From the NCBI GenBank assembly GCA_016202865.1, contig JACQNV010000010.1, forward strand, positions 1-42,271: a stretch of DNA of 42,271 nt. Direction: 5' to 3'. This stretch comes from Candidatus Aenigmatarchaeota archaeon (lineage in GTDB: Archaea > Aenigmatarchaeota > Aenigmatarchaeia > QMZP01 > JACQNV01). The notes beneath the pieces were generated by a model. It saw nothing but the letters and a program-made list of their open reading frames with translations, did no database searches and was not told the DNA's origin. Positions 2,053-25,358 of this stretch are shown here, in pieces (within the stretch, counting starts at the first letter, position 1; each line of letters opens with the position of its first letter). The translations under genes were made by a program, and so were the position numbers.

Positions 2053-2066
2053 TAATTGGGGATTAT

Positions 2067-5000
2067 ATGAGAAAAGGTAAGATAATAACAATAATAGCCG
2101 TGATGTGCGCATATCTAATCCTAGCTATGCCTTTGGGTCTAGCCCAGAGTATAGGCGTCACTTTTTACAGTTCAGATGGCACAACAAAGTTACCTGTTAC
2201 AGCTACATTGCCAACACCTCACGATCTTGTGACTAAAACGGTAAGCTTCTTGCCAGATCCGACAGGAACACTGCAAAATGTTTTGGTGAAATACGACATC
2301 AAGCAGAAAAACTATCCAATAAACAGGGGTTTTGTCTGGCTTTGTCAAAACCTAGAGCCCTCTGATTGTTTAGCTCAAAAAAAGGAGGCAATAGCCCTTC
2401 AGGAGTTTTTGAGTAAAGAAAGAGTCTGGAGCGATGTTGGGGAAATAACAGTCACATATCCGCAAAAAGGGAATGTGTTCATCCTATTGAACCTTGATGT
2501 TGTCACACAAACAGGAAGCTCGCAAAGCGTCTGGGTTGGAATTTGGGATGAGATAACAAGCCTTGGCGCAAATCTAAACCAATTCTCTGTCAGGACAAAC
2601 AGGATAGCACCAGAAAGCATAAATTTGATTTTAGAGAAAGACCAGTTCGCAAATCTCACAGCAGAATTCATCAACAACTTCTACATGATACCAAGATCAT
2701 GGGTTAAGGAAGTCCAGATACCAAAGGTAGAAGGAAATGTAGTCAACATAATTTCAGGCACACAGCTTGATAATTTAGACTCGCCTCAGCAGTTTGGCGA
2801 ACCACACAAAAGAACAGCAACAGACAGAATTCAGACAAAGACTTTGAAAAAACAATTCAACCTAGAATTCCCAATAGCCTCGCTTACAGGCGGCGATGTT
2901 GTGGCTTCACCTGTAACATTATTTAACAATCCAAAAGCAGTGTGCGGCGAGGATACAGATAAAGACGGCAATCTGTGCGACAGGAGCCTTGGTGAAAGCG
3001 AATCGACATGCTGTAAAGACTGTGGTTGCGATTCTTTGGGGTCAAACTTCACCTGTAGCGTGAGCCAGATAAGCGACAAAGATCCTGGTGCCTGTGTAAA
3101 TTCAAATGAGATTAAGCTAGTCATATCTGACATAGATTCAAGCCTTGTGTCTTGCGAGAGAAGTCATGAGATTGAATTCAACGCAAGGATAACAAACCCG
3201 CCAGGAGATTTGAATGTTGAAGAATGGTGGTATAATTTAGATAACAAAACAAAGAGATCAATAAGCTGCAGCAAGAAGCTTGTGCAAGAATATGGATGCC
3301 AGCTAACTATAGAACCGTTGGATGATTGTTCAGAAGGCGTTCATGTAGTTAAAAACAACAAGCTATTTGCAAATGTAAGATATTCACAAAACTCTGTTTC
3401 CAAAGAATTGTCAACGCCTTTGCCTGATTTTGTTTTAAACCAAAGATCTATAAGCCAAGACCAGATAAGGGAGTTCATTGTGGCTGAATTCAAGACAATC
3501 AATAATGATTTAAAAGAAGGCGTGGAGCAAGCAAAAGATTTGATGAAAACCTGTGTAAAGTTTTTGAAATATAGTTTATATGCTGGTCTAGGGGCAGCAG
3601 CAATCACAGCCGCAGCAGCTTTGTATGAAGGCGGTAAAGCCATTAATTTATGGGGCGGCCCCAACAGTTTGATAGGGGCAAAAACAATTGGTGGTATAAT
3701 AGGCGGGGCAGCAGGCTTTGCAGCAGGCGGTCCTGTAGGAGCAGTATCAGGAGCTATATTTGGTAGTGGAGTAGGGAGTTGGTTAGGCCCTGGTAGCGGT
3801 CCAGCGCCACCAACATTCTCGCAAGGCCAGACCCTTACACCTACTCAACTTCAAGCTTTAGGCGCTCAACCTGGAAGCTCATTCACCAATGGTGGTTACC
3901 AATACACGCTTTCAGGAAATACAGTTCAAACAGTTAGCACCCCAATAAATGCTCCGGGGATTGGCCAACAATTAACAGCAAATCACTTTGCCTTAGGGTT
4001 CCCGCAAACAGGGAGCGTAACTTGGCAAGCTGGTAACGGCCAGACAAATACATACACAATGACAAATGGCGTGGTTACAGGAATAGCGCCTGCCACAGCG
4101 ACAGGTGTGGGAATAGTTCCAGCCGGCTTGTCTCCAGCAGTACCAATCACATCAGTATCCACACCAGGCGTATCCCCAGTCACAACTAAATCCGGTCCTT
4201 ACACGCCAAGCGGTACAATTTTATCTTTTGCAGAGTATCTTTCATTTGTAGATGGAACACAAATAGCGCCTATAATAGTAAATGCAGGCGCGCAGGGGCT
4301 CCAACACCTTGCTCTCCAATTTGGCCAAGCCTTCACTGGGACAGCCTCTGCCTTAAGCAGCGCATCTTTGAATATTTGCCAAGCAGCAAGCCAGATAATG
4401 GATGTATACAGCAGGATGGCAAATGCCCAATCATTCTTTGTTAAATTCCAATTATGTTTGCATAACTTTGACAACCTAATGGGTAATGGCGCATGCGATG
4501 GGGGCAAAGGATCAACAACATCCAATGCTTTATCTGCTTCGCAATCTTGCATGAATTTATTGCAAGGATGCATGACAGACTTAAAACAAATGTCAAATGA
4601 AGTTAAGGATTTCACAACAAGCCTCGCAGCACAACAGCAAAATTATGCCAACCAGTTGCCATCATCCAGAGCAGTTGATTTCTGGGTGGAAGAACTAGAG
4701 CCAATTACAGGGTTCCCAGATGGAAGAGGTAGGGTTGGAAATACTTGCGATCAAAGATCAATAAAATTCGGTTACACACCTACCTCAGTATGCTACACAC
4801 CCAAAATAACAAAGACACTGAAAACACATTCAGATAAAGTGAAGTCTGTTGACACTGAATCCAAAAACATTGTTTCAAGGGCAGACACATTGATAAGATA
4901 CGCTTCAGATTACACTTCCACTCAACCAGGAGCAGCTGACATAGCCAGAAACCAGACAATTTCAGTCGCAAAACAAATAGACACAAGTTCCAAGCTAATA

Positions 5001-6056
5001 AAGTCTTCAGCCCAGGACCAGTCAATAATAACATTGGCAGATAATATAGCTACCATAGCTGGCCAGATAATTTCCACTGCTCCAGTTCAGCTACTGGATG
5101 AAGCAACTGTGAAACAGCAAGCTTTGGATATAAGATCAGCAAGTTTAGACATACAAGGCCTAATTCCAGATTTGGTAAAGCAGGTTGATGTTACAGGCCA
5201 AGTTTTGGGAACAGCATGGTCAACAAAAGTCCAGGCAGACCAAGTATTTACAGAAGGTCCGGGCTCTTACACATTTGATTTCTCTTGCGGTGACAAGACA
5301 AATCCAGCAAAGGTCGATATTAAATACGAGACAGACTGTAGCAAATTACCACCACCAAGGGTTCCAAGCACAACAGCTGTCACAAGTCCTGTTGTAGGAT
5401 CAGCAACACCTGTTTCAACACCAGTTCCAACAACAGCAGCTGTCGCAATTAAATTAGGAAGCGATTACAACCAACCAACAGGAGTCCATCAAGGAATTGG
5501 AAAAGACAGCCAGCCAATAACAGATGGTTATGATAATAACAAGGAAGTTTTTGCTCTATTGACAAAACCAAATAATTCCGCGACTTGCGAAATAGACTGG
5601 GAACAAACAGGATTTATTTTATGGGTCCCATTGCAGGCAGTAGCTATAATTGGTACAAATCAAGATGTCGCAACTTACAATTTCACTGGAATTGTCACAG
5701 GAGGATTGGACGGCAAAAAAGATGTCAAGTTTAGATGCAAAGATTCTAACGGGACAATAACAGGAACAGCTATAGGCAGCATAAAAATCGACACAACTGA
5801 CCCAGTAGTATCCATAACCAAAATAGAAAAAACAAATGTTAACCCGCTACAAGTCAGGCTTGATTTGACAAGATCAGATGCAAATGGGATAAAAGCATGC
5901 GAAATCCAATGGCAATCAGGACATCCATTTGAGAAGATAGGGACAGCGATAAATTGGGTGCATGATTATAACATAACAGGAAGTTACCTTGTACAAGCAA
6001 GATGCTCAGATCCTGCAGGCAACTATGGTGTGACAAATAAGACCCATACATTATAA
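2067..6056 (+). CDS. Module 1 component B: very large Cys-rich surface protein with N-terminal signal peptide, central Gly/Ala-rich hydrophobic hairpin and C-terminal Ig-like domains (about 1329 aa)
   Basis: The long ORF runs 2046..6056. I prefer the ATG at 2067 (MRKGKIITIIAVMCAYLILAMPLGLA/QS is a Sec-type signal); the ATG at 2046 overlaps the stop of A1. A Cys module CGEDTDKDGNLCDRSLGESESTCCKDCGC lies at about 2941-3030. A Gly-zipper-like hydrophobic stretch lies at about 3570-3810. The C-terminus has Ig-like patterns (DTTDPVVSITKIE.., ARCSDPAGN). It is a paralogue of 9524..11635. Confidence 0.8.
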   Translation: MRKGKIITIIAVMCAYLILAMPLGLAQSIGVTFYSSDGTTKLPVTATLPTPHDLVTKTVSFLPDPTGTLQNVLVKYDIKQKNYPINRGFVWLCQNLEPSDCLAQKKEAIALQEFLSKERVWSDVGEITVTYPQKGNVFILLNLDVVTQTGSSQSVWVGIWDEITSLGANLNQFSVRTNRIAPESINLILEKDQFANLTAEFINNFYMIPRSWVKEVQIPKVEGNVVNIISGTQLDNLDSPQQFGEPHKRTATDRIQTKTLKKQFNLEFPIASLTGGDVVASPVTLFNNPKAVCGEDTDKDGNLCDRSLGESESTCCKDCGCDSLGSNFTCSVSQISDKDPGACVNSNEIKLVISDIDSSLVSCERSHEIEFNARITNPPGDLNVEEWWYNLDNKTKRSISCSKKLVQEYGCQLTIEPLDDCSEGVHVVKNNKLFANVRYSQNSVSKELSTPLPDFVLNQRSISQDQIREFIVAEFKTINNDLKEGVEQAKDLMKTCVKFLKYSLYAGLGAAAITAAAALYEGGKAINLWGGPNSLIGAKTIGGIIGGAAGFAAGGPVGAVSGAIFGSGVGSWLGPGSGPAPPTFSQGQTLTPTQLQALGAQPGSSFTNGGYQYTLSGNTVQTVSTPINAPGIGQQLTANHFALGFPQTGSVTWQAGNGQTNTYTMTNGVVTGIAPATATGVGIVPAGLSPAVPITSVSTPGVSPVTTKSGPYTPSGTILSFAEYLSFVDGTQIAPIIVNAGAQGLQHLALQFGQAFTGTASALSSASLNICQAASQIMDVYSRMANAQSFFVKFQLCLHNFDNLMGNGACDGGKGSTTSNALSASQSCMNLLQGCMTDLKQMSNEVKDFTTSLAAQQQNYANQLPSSRAVDFWVEELEPITGFPDGRGRVGNTCDQRSIKFGYTPTSVCYTPKITKTLKTHSDKVKSVDTESKNIVSRADTLIRYASDYTSTQPGAADIARNQTISVAKQIDTSSKLIKSSAQDQSIITLADNIATIAGQIISTAPVQLLDEATVKQQALDIRSASLDIQGLIPDLVKQVDVTGQVLGTAWSTKVQADQVFTEGPGSYTFDFSCGDKTNPAKVDIKYETDCSKLPPPRVPSTTAVTSPVVGSATPVSTPVPTTAAVAIKLGSDYNQPTGVHQGIGKDSQPITDGYDNNKEVFALLTKPNNSATCEIDWEQTGFILWVPLQAVAIIGTNQDVATYNFTGIVTGGLDGKKDVKFRCKDSNGTITGTAIGSIKIDTTDPVVSITKIEKTNVNPLQVRLDLTRSDANGIKACEIQWQSGHPFEKIGTAINWVHDYNITGSYLVQARCSDPAGNYGVTNKTHTL

Positions 6057-6102
6057 CAATTTAACAAGCTGTGAAATGAACCATAAATTGGCCAGCAAAA
6101 CT

Positions 6103-6112
6103 CTAATATAAC
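6103..6112 (+). promoter_or_regulatory. Putative archaeal TATA box for 6131..7528
   Basis: CTAATATAAC is centred about 24 nt upstream of the ATG at 6131 in a 75-nt intergenic gap. The spacing fits a leaderless or short-leader archaeal transcript. Confidence 0.3.
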
Positions 6113-6130
6113 CTCAACCTTATTTATTAT

Positions 6131-7528
6131 ATGTATTCCAAACATCCAAAACTTCTACTAGCCTTCAGCCTCTTCGGTTTATTCACATTTCTACTGTTAT
6201 TTGCTTCTTCCAGCCATGCCCTATTAACTGATGGTGTTGTAGTTGGCATACCGCCAAACGGTGCATGGAGAGCGACAGTTGAACTGCCTGATGATTACGG
6301 TGTGGTTGGCGGGATAACAGAATTTGTTGTGAAAACAGATTGCGACGACTGGTGCGATCTGCATTATGCAAAGGTTGTGACAGACTCCAAAAATCCAGTA
6401 CGCCTCCCTCTATACATATCAAGCCAAGGAAAGCAAATTGGGGATAAAAAAACATTCAGGATAGACATATCTGCTCTTGGCGTGACAAATAGCTATGATT
6501 ACGGTATCTGCGTAACTGGCTCAGCAAACACAAACAAAGGCTCTGTAGCAGATCCATGCAAAACAGTAAACTCTGAAAACGATGCCTTCAGCCTTTCAAT
6601 CTCACCTGATCCCGTATATGCTCAGCCAAATAGCCAAGCAGAATACACAATCTCTGTCTATTCCCAAGCTGTGATGGAAGTTGAAGTAAAATCGCTGCTA
6701 ACTGGGAAAACATGGAGCATCGTGACAGATCCAGACAAGAGGATTACAGCAACAGACAAATATCTGGTTGGTGACAATCCAGAACAAATAGAAGTAGAGG
6801 CGACAATCAAAGGCTGCACAAACTCCGATTTCTGCAAAAAGACAGCAACAGCGGCTTTAATTCCCACAAGCGCACCACCAAACCAAGCTGGCGGCGATTT
6901 CTCAATAAAAATAGACCCTGCATCAATAACAGGAAAAAAAGGCTTCCCGATAAGCTATTCCCTTGACATAACAAATCACAAGAACGAAAAATCTTATGAC
7001 ATTGAGATCATACTACCAGACAGCGGACTTGAAACAGACTTTAAGCCAATATATGGAAAATCAATTTCTGGCAAAGAAAATATAGCTTTCAAGGTAACGC
7101 CAACTGGAGATCAACAGTCATACACCTTCCAGATGAAAGTCACATCAAGCCAGGGAATAACAAAGCTCACTGATGCAACAATAAATGTTAATGAGATTGT
7201 AAACGATGCCATAAACACAGCTTCTGGCGGCGAGTTGGACGCAGAGGCTTTGAGAAAACTGAATGAATGGAAAGCTAAATATAAAGACTCTGATATAGGG
7301 ACACAAATAAAGGCAGCAGATGATCTGAATAAGCCCACAACTACACCAAAGGTTACAAGAACCCCAACACCTACAACACAGCCAAAACCAGAGACCAATA
7401 TAATGGATCTTCTACTTATTGTTGTCCCTGTGGCAGTTGTTATTGTCCTTCTACTGTTTATCCTAATTAAAAAAAGGGGCCATGTAGTTGAAGAAGGCGA
7501 AGAGGAAGGCGACTATAGCTGGAAATAG
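6131..7528 (+). CDS. Module 1 component C: secreted CARDB/NEW3-like (COG1470-like) surface protein with Thr/Pro stalk, C-terminal TM anchor and acidic tail, 465 aa
   Basis: Signal peptide MYSKHPKLLLAFSLFGLFTFLLLFASSSHA. Beta-rich repeats. Stalk TTTPKVTRTPTPTTQPKPE, then TM LLLIVVPVAVVIVLLLFILI, then KKRGHVVEEGEEEGDYSWK. It is a paralogue of 11626..13053 (GICV, PC, FCKK islands). Confidence 0.8.
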   Translation: MYSKHPKLLLAFSLFGLFTFLLLFASSSHALLTDGVVVGIPPNGAWRATVELPDDYGVVGGITEFVVKTDCDDWCDLHYAKVVTDSKNPVRLPLYISSQGKQIGDKKTFRIDISALGVTNSYDYGICVTGSANTNKGSVADPCKTVNSENDAFSLSISPDPVYAQPNSQAEYTISVYSQAVMEVEVKSLLTGKTWSIVTDPDKRITATDKYLVGDNPEQIEVEATIKGCTNSDFCKKTATAALIPTSAPPNQAGGDFSIKIDPASITGKKGFPISYSLDITNHKNEKSYDIEIILPDSGLETDFKPIYGKSISGKENIAFKVTPTGDQQSYTFQMKVTSSQGITKLTDATINVNEIVNDAINTASGGELDAEALRKLNEWKAKYKDSDIGTQIKAADDLNKPTTTPKVTRTPTPTTQPKPETNIMDLLLIVVPVAVVIVLLLFILIKKRGHVVEEGEEEGDYSWK

Positions 7529-7567
7529 GTCTGCAGACCTATTTCAACCCCTAACAGCTGGAAATAG
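7517..7567 (-). repeat. 39-nt palindromic insertion element, copy 1 (reverse orientation), with perfect 12-nt flanking direct repeat
   Basis: AGCTGGAAATAG occurs at 7517-7528 and again at 7556-7567, exactly 39 nt apart. Between them lies a perfect 24-nt palindrome GAAATAGGTCTGCAGACCTATTTC (7522-7545). Its reverse complement aligns with the copies at 12640..12687 and 15801..15848. The first direct repeat supplies the last 3 codons and the stop of 6131..7528. Confidence 0.75.
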
Positions 7568-7621
7568 CCTAATGAGTATATGGTGACATGAGACATCTCA
7601 GCACTCATTTCATAGTGAGAT

Positions 7622-7643
7622 GCTGAAACCGTAGGTTTTAAGC
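7622..7643 (+). repeat. Intergenic hairpin with core AACCGTAGGTTTT (copy 1 of 2)
   Basis: GCTGAAACC-GTA-GGTTTTAAGC. The 13-nt core at 7627-7639 is identical to 18778-18790. The outer stem differs in sequence but is still complementary. Confidence 0.3.
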
Positions 7644-7673
7644 TTAATGTACTAATTTTACCAAATTATATTA

Positions 7674-9527
7674 ATGAAAGCACAAGCAGAAATAGTCATT
7701 GTTTTGGCAGCCTTGATACTTGTTATAACCCTTGTCACAATTGTTTTCCAGACAGGTCTAAACTCGCCTGACATAACAAATTTAGCCTCTGTTTTCAGAG
7801 ATGAGGTAAACAGAAGACTCTATGAAGGTTCCTTTGATATTGTAAAGACAATCAGTCTTCAGGGGGGTGTTTTAGACCCAGTACCCAACTCTGTAGATTT
7901 GGCTGGCACAAAGGTGGCTTATTGGCAAATGTGCCAGAACAAGGCCCTTCCAAGCCTTGCAGATATAAGGAAAAACATAAAATTGGGAATTGAACGGTTT
8001 GTTAGTAATCTCAATATAAACGATTTTCAGGGAAAAAAAGCCTCTCTGAGCCTGAAAGATTTAGATATCATAATAAGAAATCAGGATATTCTGGCTACAT
8101 TTACCTTGAACACAAATTTAGCAGGTTATGATCTAGATCCGCTATATGAAATAAGAATTCCAGCTAACTTGGCTGAAGTCTATAATTTTGCGTCTGATTT
8201 TGTTGATGATAATGTCCAGAAAAGGCACTTCGAGAGGTTTTTGTTGTCTCTTATGTTCAGGACAGATGAAAACATTCTGCCAACTTCCGGTGTGCTAACA
8301 AAATGCGGTCAAGCGATAATAAGAACATGGGATGATGTTCAAGAACAGATCGAGAAGCTGAGGGACTATTCTTTTGTTAACACTGTTTTTTGGGCAAGTG
8401 GAAATGACGAGTTCAAATATTATATACCAGCTCTCAATGGAAAAAAATATGACAGTCTGAAAATAAACTTTTTAGGCAGCGATCTTACAAGATCCAATCT
8501 TCAATCCTCAAGAAATCCAATATCTATAATAAACTCCAAAACCATCAGCATAGTGGCGCCATATTGCATAAAGGATTATAGGGTTGATTATTCACTAAAC
8601 TCTCCTGTGGCAGTTAAGGTGACAGGAACACCTGACTACAGTTTTAATTTTGCAATTCTACCGTTTATCGATAATAATAAAATAGGCAAGTGTTCTGGCC
8701 AGCAAGCCTTTTCATATGGCTCTGACATATGCACTGAGGCAAAATGTGATGTCAAATTATCTGTCCTTGATGTAAATGACAGACCAATACCAAATACACA
8801 AGTAAATTTCGGGGCTTGTTCAGTCGGAAAAACAGATTTCTCGGGACAGGTTAAAGGCAAAGTTCCGTGCGGAATTTCAGAACTTGTTGTAAGCAACCCA
8901 AAATACACATACTTTGCCGATGTTGTCAGTTCCAAATCAATTCCAGAAAAAATAAAACTTACTAAACTCCCTACAATAAATATCAACTTTTACAGGGCCG
9001 ATGTTATAAGAACACTATCTTATGTGCTTAATACACCTTCTTATGGAGAAATTGAAAGAGTAAATATCGGTCAGATTCAAGGCGACTACATTTTCGCAAA
9101 ATTCAAATCAAAGACGGCAAGTCCGTGGTCGCAGAGGGAATTTATTTTGGTTAATGCCGGTCTGAACAAATCAACTGTGACTAGCCAAGTTGTGGATTTC
9201 TTGTCTCCAGACAACTACACAGTTGAAGTTTCAACCATGAAAAGAGCAACCTACAAATATCAGGTTTGTGATACCGGTCTAGGCGGAACAGGAATAGCTA
9301 AAGACTGTAAGACAAAAAGCGCCCCGACAGTTTTTAACGGGAAAATGGTTTTTGATTTCGAAATAAAGGAAGGCACAAAAGACATCTACATAACATCCCT
9401 AATACCAGCGGAAAGCGAGACAAGGCAGGAACAGACAGATTTTGATTATACATCCAATATAGCTGAGGTGTCTAAATGTTTTGACCCTATATCCACAACA
9501 AAACCTAGAGAGGTTTGCACATTATGA
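7674..9527 (+). CDS. Module 2 component A: giant secreted protein with class III (pilin-like) signal peptide, 617 aa
   Basis: The N-terminus MKA/QAEIVIVLAALILVITLVTIVF has the same Q-x-E-I-V-I-V-L-A junction as A1. CarboxypepD_reg-like segment CDVKLSVLDVNDRPIPNTQVNFGACSVGKTDFSGQVKGKVPCGISELVVS. Its stop overlaps the B2 start (ATGA at 9524-9527). Confidence 0.8.
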   Translation: MKAQAEIVIVLAALILVITLVTIVFQTGLNSPDITNLASVFRDEVNRRLYEGSFDIVKTISLQGGVLDPVPNSVDLAGTKVAYWQMCQNKALPSLADIRKNIKLGIERFVSNLNINDFQGKKASLSLKDLDIIIRNQDILATFTLNTNLAGYDLDPLYEIRIPANLAEVYNFASDFVDDNVQKRHFERFLLSLMFRTDENILPTSGVLTKCGQAIIRTWDDVQEQIEKLRDYSFVNTVFWASGNDEFKYYIPALNGKKYDSLKINFLGSDLTRSNLQSSRNPISIINSKTISIVAPYCIKDYRVDYSLNSPVAVKVTGTPDYSFNFAILPFIDNNKIGKCSGQQAFSYGSDICTEAKCDVKLSVLDVNDRPIPNTQVNFGACSVGKTDFSGQVKGKVPCGISELVVSNPKYTYFADVVSSKSIPEKIKLTKLPTININFYRADVIRTLSYVLNTPSYGEIERVNIGQIQGDYIFAKFKSKTASPWSQREFILVNAGLNKSTVTSQVVDFLSPDNYTVEVSTMKRATYKYQVCDTGLGGTGIAKDCKTKSAPTVFNGKMVFDFEIKEGTKDIYITSLIPAESETRQEQTDFDYTSNIAEVSKCFDPISTTKPREVCTL

Positions 9528-11635
9528 GATTGAAAATATTGTCTTTGGTGTTGGTCTTGATAGTTTCCAGTTCAAGCTTAGCTATGGCAATCGAGATTGA
9601 CTTGGTTTATAACAATAATGCAGTCAGTTCAGCGGTTTTTGATAGGTCAAAATTTTTTGACAAAAGTCTTGTAGTAAACAATAACACTCTGCATATTTCA
9701 GTCTCAGGAAAAAACAATATTTCAATAAGTAGCATACTGCTATTCTTGTGTAAAGATAAAGCGCCAGATGCCTGCGACTTTTCAAACCCTATAGAATATG
9801 AGAGGTTTGTGGAAACCGATTTTTACCTGAATGACATATCCAATAACAACAGGGCAAATATACTTACATTGGTTAAGGCAGGTGAAAGCTGGATAGGTGC
9901 GTGGGATTCAATAGAAAATGGTGTTTGGAAAACAGGTGAAACAGACAATTTAAATCTATACCTAAAACATGATGTTGGTTCTGACTTGAAAGTCGCAATA
10001 GAGAGCCTAGGTTCCATACCAACAAACTCTGTGGAAAAAGCAGATTTTTCGGGCAAACCGCTTTATATTCTAGAAGGCAAGAAATCAATAGGCCTATTCA
10101 AAAAGGATAAAATTAATATAACATCATCTTTCTCTTCAAACAAAGTCGACTTGAAAAAAGGATATACATTTGTTTTCCCTACAGGCAACCAAATAAACAA
10201 CCCAATAACCCTATTCAACACCCCTGAGCTTTGCGGTAATTTGAAGTGTGATATTGGAGAAACCTTCAACACATGTTGGCAGGATTGCGCATGTTCAGCT
10301 GGACTAGTAAACACACCTCACGGTTGTGTCCCTGAAACAGATTTAAAATTGAACATTGAAAGCAAAAACAGGGGCGAATTTAACTGCTTTATTCCACCTG
10401 ATATACAAGCTTTCCAAAACATTGGCGGTTGTGTATTTACTGATGACTTTGAAATAAAATTGAAAATAAACAATACACCGACAACATATTTGCTAAACCC
10501 CCCATACTTCTATCTGGGTGGGCAATCTTACCCAGTGGCTGGGCGAGGAACATGCACAGAGATAGGCGATTCATATCAAATAGTTGAGAACAACTTTTCC
10601 TCTGCTCCAACAATAGTCTACAACGCCTCTGAATTTTCCTGTAACCTTTATTTTCCACCGCTTGAAAGAGATGAAGAGTTTAATGAAACCCTGGCCTTCT
10701 CCATGATATTCCCAATAACAACGAAAGAAGGAAACAAAACAGAAACACATGAACTGACAGCAACAACAGGATTGGACATATCAGGCACAAGCTTGAGGTT
10801 GGACTTGACAGATCTTCAAGATTTAGCCAAAAAGAAAGCAGAATTGGAAAAGCAACATAGGGAACTCAATAAATACCAGTATTGGCTTTCAATCGCCGAG
10901 CTAACATATGAGGCTGTGAAAATAGCCTTGGATGGTTGCTGCGCCTCTGTAATAGGATCTGTCTTCTGTTGTGGTGCAGTTACTTTCTGGACACCCGTTG
11001 TTTTTGGTTTGCATCTTGCTAATGCTGCGTATGGCATCTACATGGACAGAAAATACGATAAAAAAGTGGATGAGGTGAAAGAATATGCTCAAGGAAAAGT
11101 TCAAGAGTCTGCTATAGAAGCAAAAATAGAAATTGCGCAGAATATTCCGAACCTTGTATGGGTTAATGGAGCAAAATCAGGGCCTTATACAGGAACTGTT
11201 TGCGGCCAGGAAAATGTTGAGGTCTGGTATAACTTTGAATCCTTTGGCTGCTCTCAACGCGACGGGTTGTGGTTCAATTTCAATAATGTGACAAGGCCTC
11301 AATGCGATTGTCAGCAATTTGAATGGATAAGCGAGAATATGGAAGGGCCAATATGCGATTGTAATCAGGTATCGACATCATTCTCCTGGATCAAGAAAGA
11401 TATTAATGGAAAAGAGACAGGAATGAGAAAATATAATCAGAAAGGCGCGCATCTTTTATTGAATACAACAGCAGATAAACTGTTCAAAAAAAACAATATA
11501 CTCAATATAACAACATTCTGCTCAACAGGACAGATAGAAGCAATAGCTGAGGAAGCCGGTTTTAGTTTGGGTCCTGATATCGGAGATGTAACAGCAGAAT
11601 TCGAGTTGGTAAATTATAATTCAACATGTCAATAA
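9524..11635 (+). CDS. Module 2 component B: Cys-rich surface protein with signal peptide and central Cys-rich hydrophobic hairpin (about 703 aa)
   Basis: The ATG at 9524 overlaps the A2 stop; the track ORF starts at TTG 9515. Signal MRLKILSLVLVLIVSSSSLAMA. Cys module ITLFNTPELCGNLKCDIGETFNTCWQDCAC (about 10225-10295) parallels B1. A helix followed by the hydrophobic stretch CCASVIGSVFCCGAVTFWTPVVFGLHLANAAYGIYM lies at about 10880-11045. Confidence 0.8.
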   Translation: MRLKILSLVLVLIVSSSSLAMAIEIDLVYNNNAVSSAVFDRSKFFDKSLVVNNNTLHISVSGKNNISISSILLFLCKDKAPDACDFSNPIEYERFVETDFYLNDISNNNRANILTLVKAGESWIGAWDSIENGVWKTGETDNLNLYLKHDVGSDLKVAIESLGSIPTNSVEKADFSGKPLYILEGKKSIGLFKKDKINITSSFSSNKVDLKKGYTFVFPTGNQINNPITLFNTPELCGNLKCDIGETFNTCWQDCACSAGLVNTPHGCVPETDLKLNIESKNRGEFNCFIPPDIQAFQNIGGCVFTDDFEIKLKINNTPTTYLLNPPYFYLGGQSYPVAGRGTCTEIGDSYQIVENNFSSAPTIVYNASEFSCNLYFPPLERDEEFNETLAFSMIFPITTKEGNKTETHELTATTGLDISGTSLRLDLTDLQDLAKKKAELEKQHRELNKYQYWLSIAELTYEAVKIALDGCCASVIGSVFCCGAVTFWTPVVFGLHLANAAYGIYMDRKYDKKVDEVKEYAQGKVQESAIEAKIEIAQNIPNLVWVNGAKSGPYTGTVCGQENVEVWYNFESFGCSQRDGLWFNFNNVTRPQCDCQQFEWISENMEGPICDCNQVSTSFSWIKKDINGKETGMRKYNQKGAHLLLNTTADKLFKKNNILNITTFCSTGQIEAIAEEAGFSLGPDIGDVTAEFELVNYNSTCQ

Positions 11636-13053
11636 AATATTTAATCCCAATAACTGTAGTTTTCACACTTTTGATTAGCCTAACCTCTGTGCGAGCTTAC
11701 TTGGAGACAAACTTCTATTTTACAATGGCTCCAAATTCCACATATTGCCTATCCACAATATTGCCGTCAGATCTAGGTTTCCTTGAAGATGACAAATATA
11801 CAATGGCGATAGACAGCGGTTTTGAAACAAACATAAACTTTATAGAGACAGAAGCCGGAAAAAACAACGCAATAAAAGTCCCAATATGCTTCTCATCCAA
11901 GAACAAAAATAATGGCGAGTTTGCAGATTATAAAATCAGGACATCTGGAACAAAGTTCTCACCGTTTGAATGGAAAGGTGGAATTTGCGTATCCAATAAA
12001 ACACAAGACACCGACAAGGACTCATCAAAATATGAAAAAAATCCTTGCGAAATAGTGAACGGTCTGAGCGATCTGTTCTGGATGGATATTTTTCCAGAGC
12101 AAGCCATAACTGTTCCTGGACAAGAAGAGACTTTCTATATAGAAATCCTACCGTCTGTGGACATGGAGATAGATTTGACAATAAACAGCAACGCCGGCAT
12201 TAACATAAACAATTCTTATCTGCGATTAAAACAGTATGAAAGAAAGCAAATAGAGTTAAGGGTAAATCCAACCCTAAAAGGAGAGTATTATCTAAACGCA
12301 ACAGCAAAAGCCATATTCAACAGGCAGTATTGTGATCTGCCTTTCTGTAAAAAAGAGATCGGCGCGAAAATCCTTGTAGACGGCGGCAAAAAAATCCAGG
12401 GCTGGTCATTCCTTGTTCTCCCGCGTTTCTTATCTGCCTACAACCAAAAACCAATAGAATATGTGGCCATAATAGAAAACAATCAAGAGGACAGAAACTT
12501 CTCAATAGATTTGGGTTTGCCGCCAGGTTTATTATCTGACACGAAAAGTATTTCAGGCATTGTTAGAAAGAGCGAAAGAAAGGAGTTCAGATTTAACATA
12601 ACCTTTGCAGAAAATATCCCGCAAAAATACACAATTGATTTTACAGCAACAAGGGGACGAAATAGGTCTGCAGGCCTATTTCCAGCTGAGGGAGACACTG
12701 AAAGGGTTTTGACAGCTTTCCTATCTCTCTACGAATCTGCAGATGATTTAAAATCCCAATGGAATTCAATAAGGGACCAAGTAGACGACAAGACGCGTGC
12801 TGAAATAGATGATTTGGTGAACAAATATTTGATAGATCTCAAAGATGGGGGGTTCAGTCCAGATGATTATACAAAGATAAGAAACAAAATAAATGAAACA
12901 TCAACTAAAACGAAAACAGAAAAAACACCAGCATCCACAACAAGTCCAGCAAACCAATCAGAACAAATGCCTGTGGTTGTTCTTATCTTGATTCCAGTAG
13001 TCGTGATTATAATCCTTTTAGTTTTAATGTTCGCAAGAAGAAAGCGAGTTTAA
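11626..13053 (+). CDS. Module 2 component C: secreted CARDB/NEW3-like surface protein with C-terminal TM anchor, 475 aa, carrying an in-frame 39-nt insertion
   Basis: Signal MSIKYLIPITVVFTLLISLTSVRA. Stalk TKTKTEKTPASTTSPANQSEQ, then TM VVVLILIPVVVIIILLVLMF, then ARRKRV. Its start overlaps the B2 stop by 10 nt. It is a paralogue of C1. Confidence 0.8.
   Translation: MSIKYLIPITVVFTLLISLTSVRAYLETNFYFTMAPNSTYCLSTILPSDLGFLEDDKYTMAIDSGFETNINFIETEAGKNNAIKVPICFSSKNKNNGEFADYKIRTSGTKFSPFEWKGGICVSNKTQDTDKDSSKYEKNPCEIVNGLSDLFWMDIFPEQAITVPGQEETFYIEILPSVDMEIDLTINSNAGININNSYLRLKQYERKQIELRVNPTLKGEYYLNATAKAIFNRQYCDLPFCKKEIGAKILVDGGKKIQGWSFLVLPRFLSAYNQKPIEYVAIIENNQEDRNFSIDLGLPPGLLSDTKSISGIVRKSERKEFRFNITFAENIPQKYTIDFTATRGRNRSAGLFPAEGDTERVLTAFLSLYESADDLKSQWNSIRDQVDDKTRAEIDDLVNKYLIDLKDGGFSPDDYTKIRNKINETSTKTKTEKTPASTTSPANQSEQMPVVVLILIPVVVIIILLVLMFARRKRV
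12640..12687 (+). repeat. 39-nt palindromic insertion element, copy 2, in frame inside 11626..13053
   Basis: TTTACAGCA (12640-12648) and TTTCCAGCT (12679-12687) lie 39 nt apart. The hairpin is GAAATAGGTC-TGCA-GGCCTATTTC (12659-12682). It is translated as (FTA)TRGRNRSAGLFPA. Paralogue C1 lacks these residues. Confidence 0.7.
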
Positions 13054-13061
13054 TATTTTAT

Positions 13062-14825
13062 CTATTTATCGTACTCCTCTTCTTCACCATAGCCTTCCTC
13101 CTCATATTGCTCTTCATCTTCTGCTGAAGGTTTCTTTTTTAAAATCTTTTTCTTGACTATAATGAAAGCAAGAACGGCTATGATAATCACAATCACTACT
13201 AACAAAATTGGGAACTCGCCCTGTGTTGTTGCGGTCTTTGGTGCCCCAGAAGAAAGTATGGATTTGGCCAATGAGAATTTAGATTCGGCCTGCTGCAAAA
13301 GGATTGTAGCTGTTTGATAATCGCCTGCCTGCTGTTTTGTCTTGGAGTTATCTAAATCTAAAAGTATCGGAGCAAAAAACTTGTCAGCCTCGCTTGAAGT
13401 CACACCCTGTTTTGTTAGATTGCCTTTGAACGACCCAACTTCACTTCTGAGTTTGTCTATATCGCTTGTGACATCATCAAAAGCAGAGAATGACAGATAA
13501 ACTATTTTCACACCGCCATCGCTTTTTATCTTAACTTTTCCAGTATAATCTCCTGGATTGGTTGGTTTTATTGTTATTGTCACTTCTCCAGGGGCAGTGG
13601 ATGTGATAACAGGATTTGGTTGTGTAACTGTTATAATGTCCCCGGTGAAACCTTCAATTTCTGGCTGTTGTAGTGTAAGATTGCCTGCGCCAAGATTCCT
13701 GACAATCAACCTGTTTACAGACTCGTTTCCGGTGAGTATTTTAATGTAAGGTATAACAGGCGGATCAACATCTAGAACAGGTTTGTCAAGAGTTGTTGGT
13801 CCTGCCACTCCGCCTGTAACAGAGATCTTTATATCCAAAGGGACAGTCTTCAAGATAATAGCTGGAACACCGTTAGCTGTCTCAACAATATCAAAGCTGT
13901 CTTTTATAATCAGGCTTTTGTCTGCCCTGACTTTTATCACATATTCGCTTGAATTGCCTGCCTGTAGGCTTTTTGAAACCAGGTCAACAGTAACATACTG
14001 TTTTAGGCTGTCTGACATTGATATGCTCAAGTTAGAATAGCTTGTTGTTGTTGGATTTTTGATTGTAAATTGCCTGTCAACTGTGTCGCCTGCGACAGTT
14101 GTTGTGTCTATTGAGCTGACTGCAATATCCAAGCCTGTCTGTATTGGCGCGCCTGAACCACCACCGATTTCAAAATACATGACATAACCGCCGTTTTTTA
14201 TAGGAGCGCTTGTTGTTTGAGCTTCAAATGCGATGAAATATTTGCCAGAAGTCAGTGTGATATTAATATAATAGTCGCCGGGTCCAGTCCTATATTCTGC
14301 CTGACCGCTTTTTAGTTGTGTTAAATTGTTTGCAGTGTAGAGAGTATAAGTTACATTAGCAGCTACATTCCTAACATAGACAGAGCCTTCAATAAGAGGT
14401 CCGTTTATATTTTTTACAGCCTGAACAACCTGAAGGTCGCTGACATTTAAAATGAAATCAGAAGACTGGTTAAAACCAGGTCCAGCAAGCTGTATGTTAC
14501 CTTGGAATGTGCCTGTTTTCTGTCCAGTTGGTTGTATGAGGGGGTTTGGTCCGCATGTTGCTGTAGAATCATCTGCAAAGAAGCATGCCCATTTACTAGG
14601 ACTTAACATGTTAAAAGAACCAGCTGCTGTTGGGCTGAGATATTTTTGCCATGAAAGCCTGTTACCTGATTGTAATGCCTGTGTTTCCACAACCCAAATA
14701 AATGGTGTGCCGGCTGAAAGCGTTGAAGGAATGGTATATTTTGAAGTGATCTGCGAGGCTTGAGCGTTCACACTAAGCAACAGAACTACGCTTATAATAG
14801 CTACTAAAAGAAGGCTCTTATACAT
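13062..14825 (-). CDS. Surface protein with signal peptide, CARDB/NEW3-like beta domains, C-terminal TM anchor and acidic Tyr-containing tail, 587 aa
   Basis: Signal MYKSLLLVAIISVVLLLSVNAQA. Patterns such as VDRQFTIKNPTTTSYSNLSISMS and VNRLIVRNLGAGNLTL..PGEVTITIKPTNPGDYTGKVKIKSDGG. TM FPILLVVIVIIIAVLAFIIV, then KKKILKKKPSAEDEEQYEEEGYGEEEEYDK. It converges on C2 with an 8-nt gap. Confidence 0.8.
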   Translation of the reverse strand: MYKSLLLVAIISVVLLLSVNAQASQITSKYTIPSTLSAGTPFIWVVETQALQSGNRLSWQKYLSPTAAGSFNMLSPSKWACFFADDSTATCGPNPLIQPTGQKTGTFQGNIQLAGPGFNQSSDFILNVSDLQVVQAVKNINGPLIEGSVYVRNVAANVTYTLYTANNLTQLKSGQAEYRTGPGDYYINITLTSGKYFIAFEAQTTSAPIKNGGYVMYFEIGGGSGAPIQTGLDIAVSSIDTTTVAGDTVDRQFTIKNPTTTSYSNLSISMSDSLKQYVTVDLVSKSLQAGNSSEYVIKVRADKSLIIKDSFDIVETANGVPAIILKTVPLDIKISVTGGVAGPTTLDKPVLDVDPPVIPYIKILTGNESVNRLIVRNLGAGNLTLQQPEIEGFTGDIITVTQPNPVITSTAPGEVTITIKPTNPGDYTGKVKIKSDGGVKIVYLSFSAFDDVTSDIDKLRSEVGSFKGNLTKQGVTSSEADKFFAPILLDLDNSKTKQQAGDYQTATILLQQAESKFSLAKSILSSGAPKTATTQGEFPILLVVIVIIIAVLAFIIVKKKILKKKPSAEDEEQYEEEGYGEEEEYDK

Positions 14826-14850
14826 ATATAGTATATTGTTGTGACCCCCT

Positions 14851-14863
14851 TATATTATATATA
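14851..14863 (-). promoter_or_regulatory. Putative TATA box for 13062..14825
   Basis: The minus strand reads TATATAATATAAG 26-38 nt upstream of the ATG at 14825. Confidence 0.3.
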
Positions 14864-14905
14864 CCAAAGGCCAGCTAAAGGAATTTAAAACCAAAGCCAT
14901 TATAT

Positions 14906-15115
14906 GTGTATATGTATGAGCATGTCGGGAGCAGAATAATGGATTATGGTGCCCTTGTTGTAGGACTGTCGCTAACAGCCACGGGATTGGGCCTAATGAT
15001 ACAAGATGCATATAGAAGTCGCAAGCTCAAACCAACAAAGCAGGAGATTGATCTTACAATAATAGAATTTGAGAGAGGTGTTGGAATCCATCTCGAAAGA
15101 AAAAATCCTGAATAG
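14906..15115 (+). CDS. Hypothetical small single-TM protein (69 aa or shorter from an internal Met)
   Basis: This is only an ORF with one hydrophobic helix (YGALVVGLSLTATGLGLMI). I recognise no similarity. The antisense ORF 14944..15138 is a competing reading. Confidence 0.3.
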   Translation: MYMYEHVGSRIMDYGALVVGLSLTATGLGLMIQDAYRSRKLKPTKQEIDLTIIEFERGVGIHLERKNPE

Positions 15116-15116
15116 T

Positions 15117-15932
15117 TTACCTGTGCATTTCTATCCAATTTACAGCCAGTTTTATCAGCTTCTCAAATTGTGCGGGTTCTCTAAAATAATGATCAGCGCC
15201 TTCTACTACCTCGAGAGCCTTTTCACCTTTAAGGTTTTTCAGAATCTCCTTGCTCCCCTCAAGAGGAACCAGATCATCCTTGTCGCCATGTAAAATTAAT
15301 GTCGGAATGTCTATCTTTTTTGCCATCTCAATCCCGTTGTATTTCAGGTAATCCTGATAAAAAGTGTAGTTTAGCTTGCAATACTTGTTTGCGGAAATTA
15401 AGTTAACATAAACATAGCCATTTTCCTTGCATTTTTTCATGAGGTCTTTCAATTCCCCTGTGCATAGATCAAGACTTGCTACAGGGGAGCTCAAAACCAG
15501 ATTCTTTATCCTCTTGTCTTTGGTTGTGAGTATTGTAGCTACAAGGCCGCCCAAACTGGAACCGATAAGACTAACCCCTTTCTTCTCCACAAAGCCCAAC
15601 TTCAAGACAAAATCAATTGCGCACCTCAAGTCGTCTACATACTGTGTTATCGTTGTGTTTTCGAAAATACCTTCGCTCTCGCCAATATTTGAAAAGTCAA
15701 ATCTCAGGAAAACAAAACCTTTTTTTGTCAGAGCTTCTGCCAGTGCAAGAGGTTTCGGCCCGTCCTTACATCTACCTCGAAAACCATGTGCAAAGACAAC
15801 AGCTGGAAACAGATCAGCGGATCTGTTTCGTCCCTCATCAGCTCTGAACGGTCCTTTACCTTCTGGTGTGTGCAAAATCCCAACCAATTTCTGTCCTTTG
15901 CTGTTTTTGAAAATAATTTTTTGTTCTGGCAT
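15117..15932 (-). CDS. Alpha/beta-fold hydrolase (dienelactone hydrolase / S9-like esterase family), 271 aa, carrying an in-frame 39-nt insertion
   Basis: Nucleophile elbow GSSLGG, HGDKDDLVP and GADHYF motifs in Ser-Asp-His order. It is a paralogue of 16517..17290. Confidence 0.85.
   Translation of the reverse strand: MPEQKIIFKNSKGQKLVGILHTPEGKGPFRADEGRNRSADLFPAVVFAHGFRGRCKDGPKPLALAEALTKKGFVFLRFDFSNIGESEGIFENTTITQYVDDLRCAIDFVLKLGFVEKKGVSLIGSSLGGLVATILTTKDKRIKNLVLSSPVASLDLCTGELKDLMKKCKENGYVYVNLISANKYCKLNYTFYQDYLKYNGIEMAKKIDIPTLILHGDKDDLVPLEGSKEILKNLKGEKALEVVEGADHYFREPAQFEKLIKLAVNWIEMHR
15801..15848 (-). repeat. 39-nt palindromic insertion element, copy 3, in frame inside hydrolase 15117..15932
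   Basis: Plus strand AGCTGGAAA (15801-15809) and AGCTCTGAA (15840-15848) lie 39 nt apart. There is a perfect 10-bp stem with a 4-nt loop, GAAACAGATC-AGCG-GATCTGTTTC (15806-15829). It is translated on the minus strand as FRADEGRNRSADL, which is absent from the paralogous hydrolase. Confidence 0.75.
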
Positions 15933-16516: not shown

Positions 16517-17290
16517 TTATAACCACTTCTTGAACCAACCCAAAACAAGCTTTAACATTTCTTCCATTGCTTCTTTCCCCTCATATCCATGCTGTGTGTT
16601 TTTGATAATGTGAAGCTCCTTAGGCTGGTTTGCCAAATCAAAATAATCATCAATTTTCCTGCCGACCAAATCATCTTTCTCACCGTGGATTAACATTACT
16701 GGCACATGTATATTCTTGATGATTTCGGGGAAATTATAATTGTCAAAATCCTTCCAAAATTGCGGGCCGATTTTGACAGGTGGCTCGTCCTCATGTTTTA
16801 GGATAGAAATTCCATCTGGATTATAACCACCCCTATACTTTACTATTTTTGCAATCTCAACTCTTGGGTTTTTACAGGAACTCAGCAAAGTAATAGCCTT
16901 TATATTATGGTCACCGCGTGCAACTGTAACAGCTGTTCCAAAAGACATACCAATAATGCCAACCCTTTTTGTGTCGACAAATGGAAGCTTCCTCAGAATT
17001 TCGAGGGCAGAATTCAAATCAGAAACATGACTTGTCAAAGTTGATTTGGAAAAGTCGCCTTCGCTCTCGCCGCACCCAGTGAAGTCAAATTGCAAAGTCA
17101 CAAAACCGTTTTCACAAAGCGTTTTTGCAAGCACATCAAACATGTTTACATTGTCCTCATTTGTCTCATGCATGTGGTAGCCAAAACCGTGGGCTAGAAT
17201 TATGGCTGGAAATTTAGATTTACCAGGAGGAATATTCAAAATTCCAGCTAACTTTTCTCCTTTAGAATTATTGAACTGGATTTTGTGCAT
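16517..17290 (-). CDS. Alpha/beta-fold hydrolase, paralogue of 15117..15932, 257 aa
   Basis: GMSFGT nucleophile elbow, HGEKDDLV and NTQHGY motifs. The N-terminus MHKIQFNNSKGEKLAGIL parallels MPEQKIIFKNSKGQKLVGIL. It overlaps the upstream gene's 3' end by 23 nt. Confidence 0.85.
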   Translation of the reverse strand: MHKIQFNNSKGEKLAGILNIPPGKSKFPAIILAHGFGYHMHETNEDNVNMFDVLAKTLCENGFVTLQFDFTGCGESEGDFSKSTLTSHVSDLNSALEILRKLPFVDTKRVGIIGMSFGTAVTVARGDHNIKAITLLSSCKNPRVEIAKIVKYRGGYNPDGISILKHEDEPPVKIGPQFWKDFDNYNFPEIIKNIHVPVMLIHGEKDDLVGRKIDDYFDLANQPKELHIIKNTQHGYEGKEAMEEMLKLVLGWFKKWL

Positions 17291-24570: not shown

Positions 24571-25056
24571 TTAGTGTGCCAGTTTGTTTATTATTGCTGT
24601 GTAAAAGTCTGTGGAACAGTACCAGCCGCTGCCTATCATCTTGTCAATTATAGACTTTACCTCAGCTTTTGTAATTATCTTCTTTTTGAACAAAAGGAGG
24701 AGAAGGAACACAGAACCAGCATTGTCCACTTTTTCTATTGAAGTCAAGTTCCTAAGTTTCTGGTCGTCGGTTACAGCTGTCCCCTTTAATTTTTTGGCCA
24801 GTTCAAGAACCTCTAAATCAGCTTGCTCAACAACCTTTAGCTGACCTATATCACCTTCTTCCACTGAAAATAATTTTGAATCTACCAACATCTTTATGTA
24901 AACAGCTTCCTCAAAACCCCTTTTTATTCCTACATCTACAACCTCCCTATAAACTTTTGCCGGGATAATAAGTTGCGCATCTAGTTTTTCCAACTTCTCT
25001 AATGTTCTTGCTTTTCCAAGATAGATAAGTGTAACAGCATCAAAAACAAGTATCAT
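24571..25056 (-). CDS. PIN-domain toxin, DUF3368 / COG2405-like
   Basis: MILVFDAVTLIYLGKARTLEKLEKLDAQLIIPAKVYREVVD matches the typical DUF3368 N-terminus (D..PLIYL.K....LL..L....IIP..V..EV). It has a 4-nt ATGA overlap with the upstream antitoxin. Confidence 0.75.
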   Translation of the reverse strand: MILVFDAVTLIYLGKARTLEKLEKLDAQLIIPAKVYREVVDVGIKRGFEEAVYIKMLVDSKLFSVEEGDIGQLKVVEQADLEVLELAKKLKGTAVTDDQKLRNLTSIEKVDNAGSVFLLLLLFKKKIITKAEVKSIIDKMIGSGWYCSTDFYTAIINKLAH

Positions 25057-25358
25057 GACAATGCTCTCTCTATATCCTTTTCAAGGACATCTTTATCTTT
25101 GATCCAAACAGTTTTAGACTCTTTTACCTTTTCTGCAAATGACCAAACATCTAGACCAGCAAATTTTGCAGCAGCTAAAAATGTAAGTTTGCCCTTAGAT
25201 AGTAAATCAACAGCTGTTTTCTCTCTCCACTCTGTTAAGGATGTTTGGAGTAGCTTCCTGATGGCAGTTGATTTGTCCAAATTCTCAGATTCTATAAACT
25301 CCTCCAATTCCTTTTCCAATTCCACGGATAACCTTATAGACAAAGATGTTTCCTTCAT
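25053..25358 (-). CDS. UPF0175 (COG2886)-type antitoxin with N-terminal RHH-like segment (101 aa from the ATG at 25358)
   Basis: MKETSLSIRLSVELEKELEEFIE is RHH-like. AVDLLSKGKLTFLAAAKFAGLDVWSFAEKV matches the UPF0175 signature. The longer track ORF (to 25442) adds a non-protein-like leader. Confidence 0.7.
   Translation of the reverse strand: MKETSLSIRLSVELEKELEEFIESENLDKSTAIRKLLQTSLTEWREKTAVDLLSKGKLTFLAAAKFAGLDVWSFAEKVKESKTVWIKDKDVLEKDIERALS

Follow-up and report, generated by a model that had tools for sequence, protein, structure and literature searches.

RESULTS

A 39-nt hairpin unit occurs three times in an archaeal contig

The DNA studied here is contig JACQNV010000010.1 (assembly GCA_016202865.1) of a Candidatus Aenigmatarchaeota archaeon, a stretch of 42,271 nucleotides (nt) that we call the window. 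A Pfam scan of its open reading frames (ORFs) found archaeal genes for ribosomal proteins L10P/P0, L12, L1, and L11 and for a SUF system, and the closest named homologues of its alpha/beta-hydrolase carry the label Candidatus Woesearchaeota. Gene order is conserved in two relatives (loci L113/L114/L115 and locus L116). A 39-nt unit, whose hairpin has a stem of 10 bp and a loop of 4 nt, is found within or next to three window genes, C1, C2, and the hydrolase gene (copies A, B, and C, respectively; Table 1). A first-pass annotation, made from the sequence alone, had described copies B and C and overlooked copy A. A degenerate pattern for the hairpin matches the window at 3 sites where 0.29 would be expected by chance (none of 100 shuffles gave as many), and a covariance model built from seven copies matches only copies A, B, and C there.

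In copy B, the hairpin is preceded by the 5′ part ACAAGGGGAC and followed by the tail CAGCT, and the in-frame translation reads ...T R G R N R S A G L F P A.... As the annotation had stated, copy B is bounded by TTTACAGCA and TTTCCAGCT, which form an apparent direct repeat with a spacing of 39 nt. Its hairpin is the weakest of the three (RNA z = −1.2), and in comparison to copy A and to a copy from a related genome (L117) it carries an A-to-G change at position 16 that also replaces Asp by Gly. Copy C encodes D E G R N R S A D L F P A (hydrolase residues 32 to 44), and its 30-mer at positions 15801 to 15830 of the minus strand reads CGAAACAGATCCGCTGATCTGTTTCCAGCT. Copy C is no assembly artifact, because its sequence is identical in three Logan assemblies from different sequencing runs; the exact C2 protein had no record in the assembly index, and this independent confirmation applies to copy C alone. 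Copy A is antisense to C1, spans the C1 stop codon (TAG at 7526-8), and is flanked by a perfect 12-nt direct repeat, AGCTGGAAATAG (7517-7528 and 7556-7567), again with a spacing of 39 nt. Its core is identical to that of the L117 copy, which lies in a tRNA-Thr intron.

TABLE 1 Coordinates of the copies, their hosts, and related sites in the window and in related loci
Feature	Position	Strand	Description
Copy A	Window 7517..7567	−	39-nt unit plus 12-nt direct repeat, at the C1 stop codon; 66 bits
Copy A hairpin core	Window 7522..7545		Perfect 24-nt palindrome GAAATAGGTCTGCAGACCTATTTC
C2	Window 11626-13053 (ORF)	+	Host of copy B
Native flank of copy B	Window 12640..12648	+	TTTACAGCA; 7/9 like the element 3′ end TTTCCAGCT
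Copy B	Window 12649..12687	+	39-nt (13-codon) insert in C2; covariance model 65.9 bits
Copy B hairpin	Window 12659..12682	+	GAAATAGGTC TGCA GGCCTATTTC; 10-bp stem, one U.G at pair 9
Alpha/beta-hydrolase gene	Window 15117-15932 (ORF)	−	Host of copy C
Copy C	Window 15801..15839	−	39-nt insert in the alpha/beta-hydrolase gene; covariance model 65 bits
Copy C hairpin	Window 15806..15829	−	GAAACAGATC CGCT GATCTGTTTC; 10/10 pairs; DNA z = −4.5
Native TTTCCAGCC (F P A), uninterrupted	Window 17204..17212	−	Paralogous hydrolase; equivalent of the copy C insertion position
tRNA-Ala(UGC)	L047 5982-6190	−	136-nt intron at 37/38; metagenome-assembled genome (MAG) CAYYYJ01
tRNA-His(GUG)	L053 3193-3408	+	131-nt intron at 37/38; MAG CAYYYJ01
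tRNA-Thr(UGU)	L117 9900-10190	+	Three introns: D-loop, anticodon loop, T-arm

Orthologous sites in close relatives lack the unit

At the site of copy B, 13 residues are cleanly missing from the C2 orthologue in L113 (57% identical), and two orthologues of the hydrolase (P0001 and P0002, 89% and 81% identical) lack exactly the 13 residues encoded by copy C (GPFR|AVVF). At the DNA level, the empty site for copy C reads TTCAGAGC(A/T)|GTTGT, and the window has 39 additional bases ending in CCAGCT. The C1 orthologue in L113 ends with GDYKWK* (...TACAAATGGAAATAA; ...AAATGGAAATAA) and has no element behind it. Judged by these alignments, in which the orthologous sites of close relatives are empty, copies A, B, and C are insertions. 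The annotation had relied on the absence of the insert from the paralogue C1; this comparison is weak, since C1 and C2 are only 20% identical, and it is the gaps in the orthologues that are decisive. The converse case is found in L113, whose paralogous hydrolase contains two in-frame copies (L113-1 and L113-2) at sites that are empty in the window, and this protein has 284 residues in L113 versus 257 in the window and in L116. A copy 3′ of the hydrolase stop codon is present in L116 only.

At copies A, B, and C, the insert is preceded by (A/T)GCT, and AGCT is also the end of the element itself. This rule is clean at three of the five sites for which an orthologous empty site is available; the junctions of L113-1 and L113-2 fit poorly. 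When the native 9 nt before the insertion were compared to the element end TTTCCAGCT, 7/9 positions agreed for copy A, 6/9 for L113-1, 5/9 for copies B and C, and 2/9 for L113-2. The value for copy A was taken from the insert-free relative (single-site P = 0.003). Since the junction positions were chosen knowing the repeats, the target resemblance is suggestive only. The uninterrupted TTTCCAGCC in the window's paralogous hydrolase (Table 1) is an example of a target-like site that holds no insert. The idea of a strict 9-nt target-site duplication was dropped after the orthologous empty sites had been aligned. A miniature inverted-repeat transposable element was also rejected: the ends are asymmetric (GGGAC versus CAGCT), and there are neither terminal inverted repeats nor a duplication of fixed length.

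Downstream of the hydrolase gene, the spacer measures 290 nt in the window (14826-15116), 35 nt in L113, and ∼110 nt, including the element copy, in L116. It appears to be a hot spot for insertions.

The unit belongs to an interspersed family

The census of copies covers the 42-kb window and related loci, the window's own genome being absent from the scanned collections. The scan pattern fixed the flanks and the four outer stem pairs, required a pyrimidine/purine pair at position 5, and left the inner 14 nt free. Scans of genomes and metagenomes with this pattern yielded about 100 chance matches without a matching hairpin and four true copies with new, fully paired stems. The covariance model found five more copies in the relatives' loci at 35 to 55 bits, and its top score was 22.6 bits on 662 kb of unrelated DNA matching the same anchor pattern. 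Two sequences accepted on their flanks, L047c (24 bits) and L116 (19.6 bits), are only probable family copies. The resulting collection comprises 14 copies with nine stem haplotypes from four archaeal genome sources (∼130 kb of sequence), at a density of about one copy per 8 to 14 kb. Two patterns run against IMG/VR viral contigs returned chance matches without hairpins and no sign of a viral or plasmid source.

On the strand that we call sense, the consensus unit has a purine-rich lead, GGGAC, a 10-bp stem starting with GAAA, a 4-nt loop, an arm ending with TTTC, and the tail CAGCT(GAR). The conserved 5′ flank is (R)RGGGAC, and 13 of the 14 copies have the tail C-CA-GCT. About 12 copies are in sense and 2 in antisense orientation relative to the local transcript. 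The family is interspersed among coding regions, tRNA introns, an rRNA operon, and regions directly after stop codons. With introns allowed, ARAGORN places one copy in the intron of tRNA-Ala(UGC) in a 16S-23S spacer and another in the intron of tRNA-His; a further copy lies in the third intron of the three-intron tRNA-Thr of L117.

Several observations concern these locations. The genes for tRNA-Ala(UGC) and tRNA-His(GUG) were both missed by ARAGORN with default settings, and their introns have in common a module of ∼95 nt with a three-way-junction fold, the outer helix of which contains a compensated G:C/C:G change. The tRNA-Thr(UGU) gene was recognized by ARAGORN only after it had been spliced by hand, the element copy lying in the T-arm intron. 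The 3′ part of the 16S rRNA gene in L047 contains an ORF resembling LAGLIDADG homing endonucleases (6316-7113, minus strand), and an element copy (7412-7446) lies in the same intervening sequence. The stem GAAACCGATC encloses the loop TGAA at L047 6077-6100 and L053 3276-3299, and its reverse complement, TTCA, at L064 1296-1319; here it looks as if the palindromic core had been flipped relative to its flanks (“flip/flop”). In L064, an antisense copy lies in an open frame (1221-1386, minus strand; …SAGNRSEDRFRP…), with a pilin-like class III signal peptide (KRKGLNGQASLIDVVLLG) following directly downstream; since the contig stops short of a start codon, this copy may be either coding or part of the 5′ leader. 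In L116, the right arm and tail are repeated 20 nt downstream of the full copy (5604-5660), and L077 has a 37-nt direct repeat (1-37 and 75-111) containing a degenerate hairpin, GAAAACATGCAATTGTTTCC.

Stem pairing is conserved across the family

In the table of 14 copies, all 140 stem cells are standard pairs, including two T.G pairs, both of which are at pair 9 on the sense strand (copies B and L047c). Five pairs show double changes, namely, pair 3 (A:T/C:G), pair 5 (T:A/C:G), pair 6 (A:T/C:G/T:A), pair 7 (G:C/T:A), and pair 8 (G:C/A:T). In the seven seed copies, 100% of the cells are paired and three pairs are doubly changed; none of 500 shuffles matched the observed paired fraction or covariation score, and shifting the partner by one column lowered pairing to 46 to 54%. 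Pairs 1 to 4 were fixed by the search pattern, and 14 related sequences are too few for a phylogeny-aware test. Within these sampling limits, the structural conservation of the hairpin at the family level is real. The annotation had proposed that more copies be collected and checked for covariation, and the fully paired stems and five doubly changed pairs of the 14 copies agree with its expectation.

The reading frame pairs wobble positions with each other

The annotation had drawn attention to the 30-mers in C2 and the hydrolase gene, and our recount agrees with its figures: there are seven nucleotide differences and one amino acid change, with compensated changes from copy B to copy C at pair 5 (T:A to C:G) and pair 8 (G:C to A:T), 10/10 pairs in copy C, and nine pairs plus one T.G in copy B. 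The double constraint that it read from this pattern is not supported. Simultaneous selection on structure and peptide is not needed to explain it; the wobble geometry and older subfamily states suffice. In the coding frame, core position i pairs with position 25 − i, and the third codon positions (2, 5, 8, 11, 14, 17, 20, and 23) pair solely among themselves, as stem pairs 2, 5, and 8 and loop positions 11/14. Because wobble positions pair with wobble positions, a compensated transition at pairs 2, 5, and 8 is synonymous on both arms. Compensatory replacements that are fully synonymous number 3 of 30, one each at pairs 2, 5, and 8; they are of the transition type, via G.U intermediates, and two of the three distinguish copies B and C. 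Pairs 1 to 4 are nearly invariant in the family, which leaves an effective choice of about 2 of five. Differences that are both compensatory and synonymous are expected between palindromic copies wherever the frame pairs wobble with wobble.

Both states of pair 5 and of pair 8 are also found in noncoding copies of other genomes, and therefore the differences between copies B and C predate the insertions. The stem of copy B is that of copy A and of the tRNA-Thr-intron copy save one A-to-G change, and copy C has the C:G (pair 5) and A:T (pair 8) states seen elsewhere in the family. As far as the sequences tell, the two copies probably inherited their differences from separate source subfamilies and did not acquire them under coding constraint. 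Copy L113-1, which is in frame, has a compensated change from G:C to T:A at the non-wobble pair 7, at the cost of an R-to-M and an L-to-I replacement; here the stem was kept and the peptide was not.

Since the unit is 39 nt long also at the noncoding copy A, this length is intrinsic, and insertion therefore preserves the reading frame. About four of the unit's six frames are usually stop free, and all four certain coding copies use the same one, giving the peptide GRN(R/M)SA(D/G)(L/I)FP(A/S). The probability of one shared frame in four copies is ∼1.6% under equal use of four frames, and ∼1 in 8 if only two hydrophilic frames are tolerated. The shared frame is a real signal, the one left at the peptide level. 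In an AlphaFold model of the hydrolase (mean predicted local distance difference test [pLDDT] score of 92.7), the insert of copy C lies in the β2-β3 loop, with residues 32 to 44 (pLDDT of 57 to 75) in coil between strands 15-21 and 42-48. Placement in a loop, as modeled, would be the ordinary filter for insertions that survive in genes.

DISCUSSION

A selfish hairpin repeat is the preferred explanation

We propose that the 39-nt unit is a copy from a family of short, non-autonomous selfish hairpin repeats, similar to REPs and Rickettsia palindromic elements (RPEs), in DPANN-type archaea, and we give this reading a probability of roughly 60%. The complementarity of the stem would be kept because the propagation machinery recognizes the hairpin on one strand, and not for a need of the host in C2 and the hydrolase gene. 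Movement would most likely occur as single-stranded DNA, cut and joined beside an (A/T)GCT-like site, and the mover may be a hairpin-recognizing HUH/Y1 transposase acting in trans in the style of IS200/IS605 or RAYT enzymes. The preferred target could be the non-template strand of transcribed DNA, which would account for the mostly sense orientation and for the copies in tRNA and rRNA genes. DPANN genomes are about 1 Mb in size and have nearly no intergenic space. Survival within genes might be owed to the 13-codon length, to a stop-free frame encoding a hydrophilic loop, and to insertion points in surface loops.

In-frame palindromic repeats are a known phenomenon in bacteria, where they are represented by REPs and RPEs. 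Di Nocera et al. (2013) described a “CGTC-tagged” superfamily of bacterial REPs that includes Rickettsia RPE-4/RPE-6 and Neisseria dRS3 (PMC3733652). REPs are 20 to 40 nt long, form subfamilies with alternative complementary stem residues, and have G.T pairs and CCA tails; they include in-frame intragenic copies, and their ends can supply TAG stop codons (PMC3733652). A RAYT (Y1/HUH) gene flanked by repeats is a defining feature of GTAG REPs and not of CGTC REPs, a class for which no dedicated transposase is known (PMC3733652). The archaeal unit is like the CGTC REPs in its size (20 to 40 nt), in its one stem-loop (8 to 10 bp with a 4- to 5-nt loop) with A:T pairs at the stem foot, and in having an unpaired tag at one end and a CCA tail at the opposite end, the archaeal 3′ side reading ...TTT-CCA-GCT. 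It also shares with REPs the subfamilies with alternative complementary residues and G.T pairs (here, nine haplotypes and two T.G), as well as copies downstream of genes, copies that supply TAG, and in-frame copies revealed by shorter orthologues. It differs from them in its tag, which is GGGAC (GACG beside the stem) and not CGTC or GTAG, GACG being the reverse complement of CGTC on the same side of the stem. Further differences are the archaeal hosts (the survey reports bacterial phyla only) and the copies in tRNA and rRNA introns, tRNA-intron residence not being described in that survey (PMC3733652). In addition, the archaeal copies are single, without head-to-head dimers, and have a fixed length of 39 nt with apparent direct repeats.

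Rickettsia RPE-1 is likewise a selfish palindrome that inserts in frame, adds a peptide at tolerated surface positions, and also occupies noncoding sites, but it is ∼100 to 150 bp long, bacterial, and apparently unrelated in sequence, whereas the archaeal element has 39 nt and one hairpin. The in-frame presence of RPE-1 palindromic elements in unrelated genes, and also in noncoding RNA genes and spacers, was reportedly described by Ogata et al. in 2000. The relation to the Rickettsia palindromic elements, which have been reviewed (PMC10969869), appears to be functional analogy and not membership. With IS200/IS605 ends, their miniature derivatives (PATEs), and RAYT/REP systems, the unit shares asymmetric conserved flanks and the lack of both terminal inverted repeats and a true fixed-length duplication, and it would also share the recognition of a hairpin by its shape on one strand and strand-specific insertion beside a short specific sequence (PMC2817692, PMC3479197). 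It has one hairpin, however, and not the separate left-end and right-end hairpins of IS200/IS605. As in PARCEL elements, palindromic DNA encodes similar peptides in either orientation (GRNRSADLFPA in sense frame 0 and AGNRSADLFRP in antisense frame 1), but PARCELs are tandem, intragenic, amphipathic modules and not interspersed 39-nt single hairpins (PMC2996958). Our literature search turned up no report of an element of this kind from DPANN archaea, a result that is limited by the library searched and is no proof of novelty. Seen through these likenesses, the element is best regarded as a new archaeal addition to the known class of REP/RPE-like selfish hairpin repeats, with a mover that is putative.

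Several points weigh against this interpretation. The collection has just 14 copies, and 5 to 7 of them come from a structure-aware model that is biased toward pairing. The direct repeats measure 12, ∼5, or 4 nt depending on the site, L113-2 has neither a repeat nor any target resemblance, and one insert is 42 nt long, so that the integration rule is not clean. Pfam found no transposase domain (Y1_Tnp or other) in the ∼40 window ORFs and no transposase in ∼60 kb of related loci (called genes of L113 to L118), and no TnpA, RAYT, or TnpB gene lies near any copy in the window and the related loci. To our knowledge, RAYT-type enzymes have not been found in archaea. The orientation bias (∼12 sense, 2 antisense) is also compatible with a role at the RNA level.

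Alternative explanations

A tentative and bolder proposal, which we consider unlikely, is that these 13-codon hairpin elements form an undescribed archaeal class with strand-specific entry into transcribed DNA or RNA, reservoirs in tRNA and rRNA introns, and a length and stop-free frames adapted to persistence within genes of the very gene-dense DPANN genomes. They would be moved by an enzyme so far not linked with repeats of this kind, or else the hairpin would also serve a host protein as an RNA signal.

The pattern of insertion sites fits hairpin-guided single-strand cutting and joining beside a short motif, and it also fits microhomology-mediated template switching. On this account, the unit would be the same selfish repeat without a transposase: a stalled replication or repair polymerase would switch template at AGCTGGAAA-like microhomology, copy ∼39 nt, and return at AGCT, leaving direct repeats of variable length. 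The length of the direct repeats does track native similarity (12/12 for A, ∼7/9 for B, and 7/10 for C), the native targets resemble the element end even in insert-free genomes, partial arm-plus-tail repeats lie beside the L116 copy, and no transposase is found in the window ORFs or related loci. A repair accident alone, however, leaves unexplained why at least four genome sources have a conserved unit of 39 nt with conserved asymmetric flanks and why the stems are strictly complementary over nine haplotypes, and L113-2 is without target similarity. Overall, we judge this route to be rather improbable.

Somewhat less probable still is the view put forward in the first-pass annotation, that the hairpin is an RNA or DNA signal selected by the host and read by a nuclease, recombinase, or RNA-binding protein, with joint selection on structure and peptide. 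One part of it stands: the noncoding copies and the family-wide pairing support the hairpin as a conserved nucleic acid feature. The second part, joint selection, does not, with the synonymous pattern arising from wobble-wobble geometry and from states older than the insertions and with two residues altered by the compensated non-wobble change in L113-1. A signal read at the RNA level would agree with the majority of copies being sense to the local transcript, with the two imperfect copies (B and L047c) being U.G on the sense strand where the other strand would be C.A, with the one frame common to all four coding copies, and with the hairpin forming an arm of the conserved three-way junction in two tRNA introns. 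Against host selection, none of the three window sites carries the insert in close relatives, the genes concerned (for surface proteins and hydrolases) are unrelated to each other and have their inserts in loops or at gene ends, and Rfam 15 gave no match at any copy in the window, L047, L053, L064, L077, L113, L116, or L117. Two RNA motifs were rejected on inspection: a hammerhead ribozyme (CUGAUGA...GAAA occurs upstream of the stem in copy C alone, and stems I/II are impossible) and a C/D-box or K-turn RNA (UGAUGA and CUGA occur in some copies only).

Miniature introns are a very unlikely explanation. Archaeal mRNA introns of the bulge-helix-bulge type are known from cbf5 (PMC2738675), and three copies of the unit do lie within genuine tRNA introns; inserts removed from mRNA by the tRNA splicing endonuclease would never yield the peptide. 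In such introns, two 3-nt bulges at the splice sites enclose a 4-bp helix, with further helices adjoining. We scanned for a 4-bp central helix with a 3-bp outer helix, which recovered the control splice sites of tRNA-Ala and tRNA-His. For the precise removal of 39 or 42 nt, however, no 4-bp central helix was found in B, L113-1, and L113-2, and copy C had only weak candidates built on the self-complementary AGCT. Moreover, the coding copies are all stop-free multiples of three in one frame, which is expected only if they are translated.

Least probable of all is a shared protein motif, GRNRSADLFPA, spread by gene conversion with an incidental hairpin, an outcome that the annotation had named as grounds for abandoning its view: a near-identical 11-residue peptide does occur in four proteins, but the noncoding copies effectively refute this reading, as the same DNA is found in introns, in spacers, after stop codons, and in the opposite orientation, 0 of 120 hydrolase homologues carry the motif, and a peptide profile (3× tandem) gave one further match among 5.8 billion proteins. 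That single match is a dubious 61-residue ORF over a tRNA intron, and it led to the tRNA-Thr-intron copy.

Consequences for proteins and annotation

Surface proteins and enzymes gain 13-residue loops from the element, which differs in its presence between close relatives, so that proteins vary in length in a way that may confuse orthology and annotation. The element also resides in long tRNA introns that are missed by standard tRNA finders. With a one-strand hairpin and the flanks GGGAC and CCAGCT, it offers a defined substrate for finding an archaeal mobilizing enzyme.

Other features of the window

Seven large genes of 465 to 1,336 residues are clustered at positions 19 to 14825, with hardly any Pfam matches. 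In several of their products, the N terminus resembles a pilin-type signal peptide of archaea (e.g., MKAQAEIVIVLAALILV) or the C terminus carries a membrane anchor. Copies A, B, and C all lie within or beside this cluster and the adjacent hydrolase gene. At positions 24571 to 25442 (minus strand), a PIN-like (DUF3368) gene shares 4 nt with a UPF0175 gene, and the two are probably a toxin-antitoxin pair. Ribosomal protein L11 (41586-42197, minus strand) has 203 residues, with ∼70 extra at the C terminus, and the DNA of its Ala-rich stretch forms an inverted repeat with positions 3583 to 3616, which are part of the gene for the 1,336-residue surface protein.

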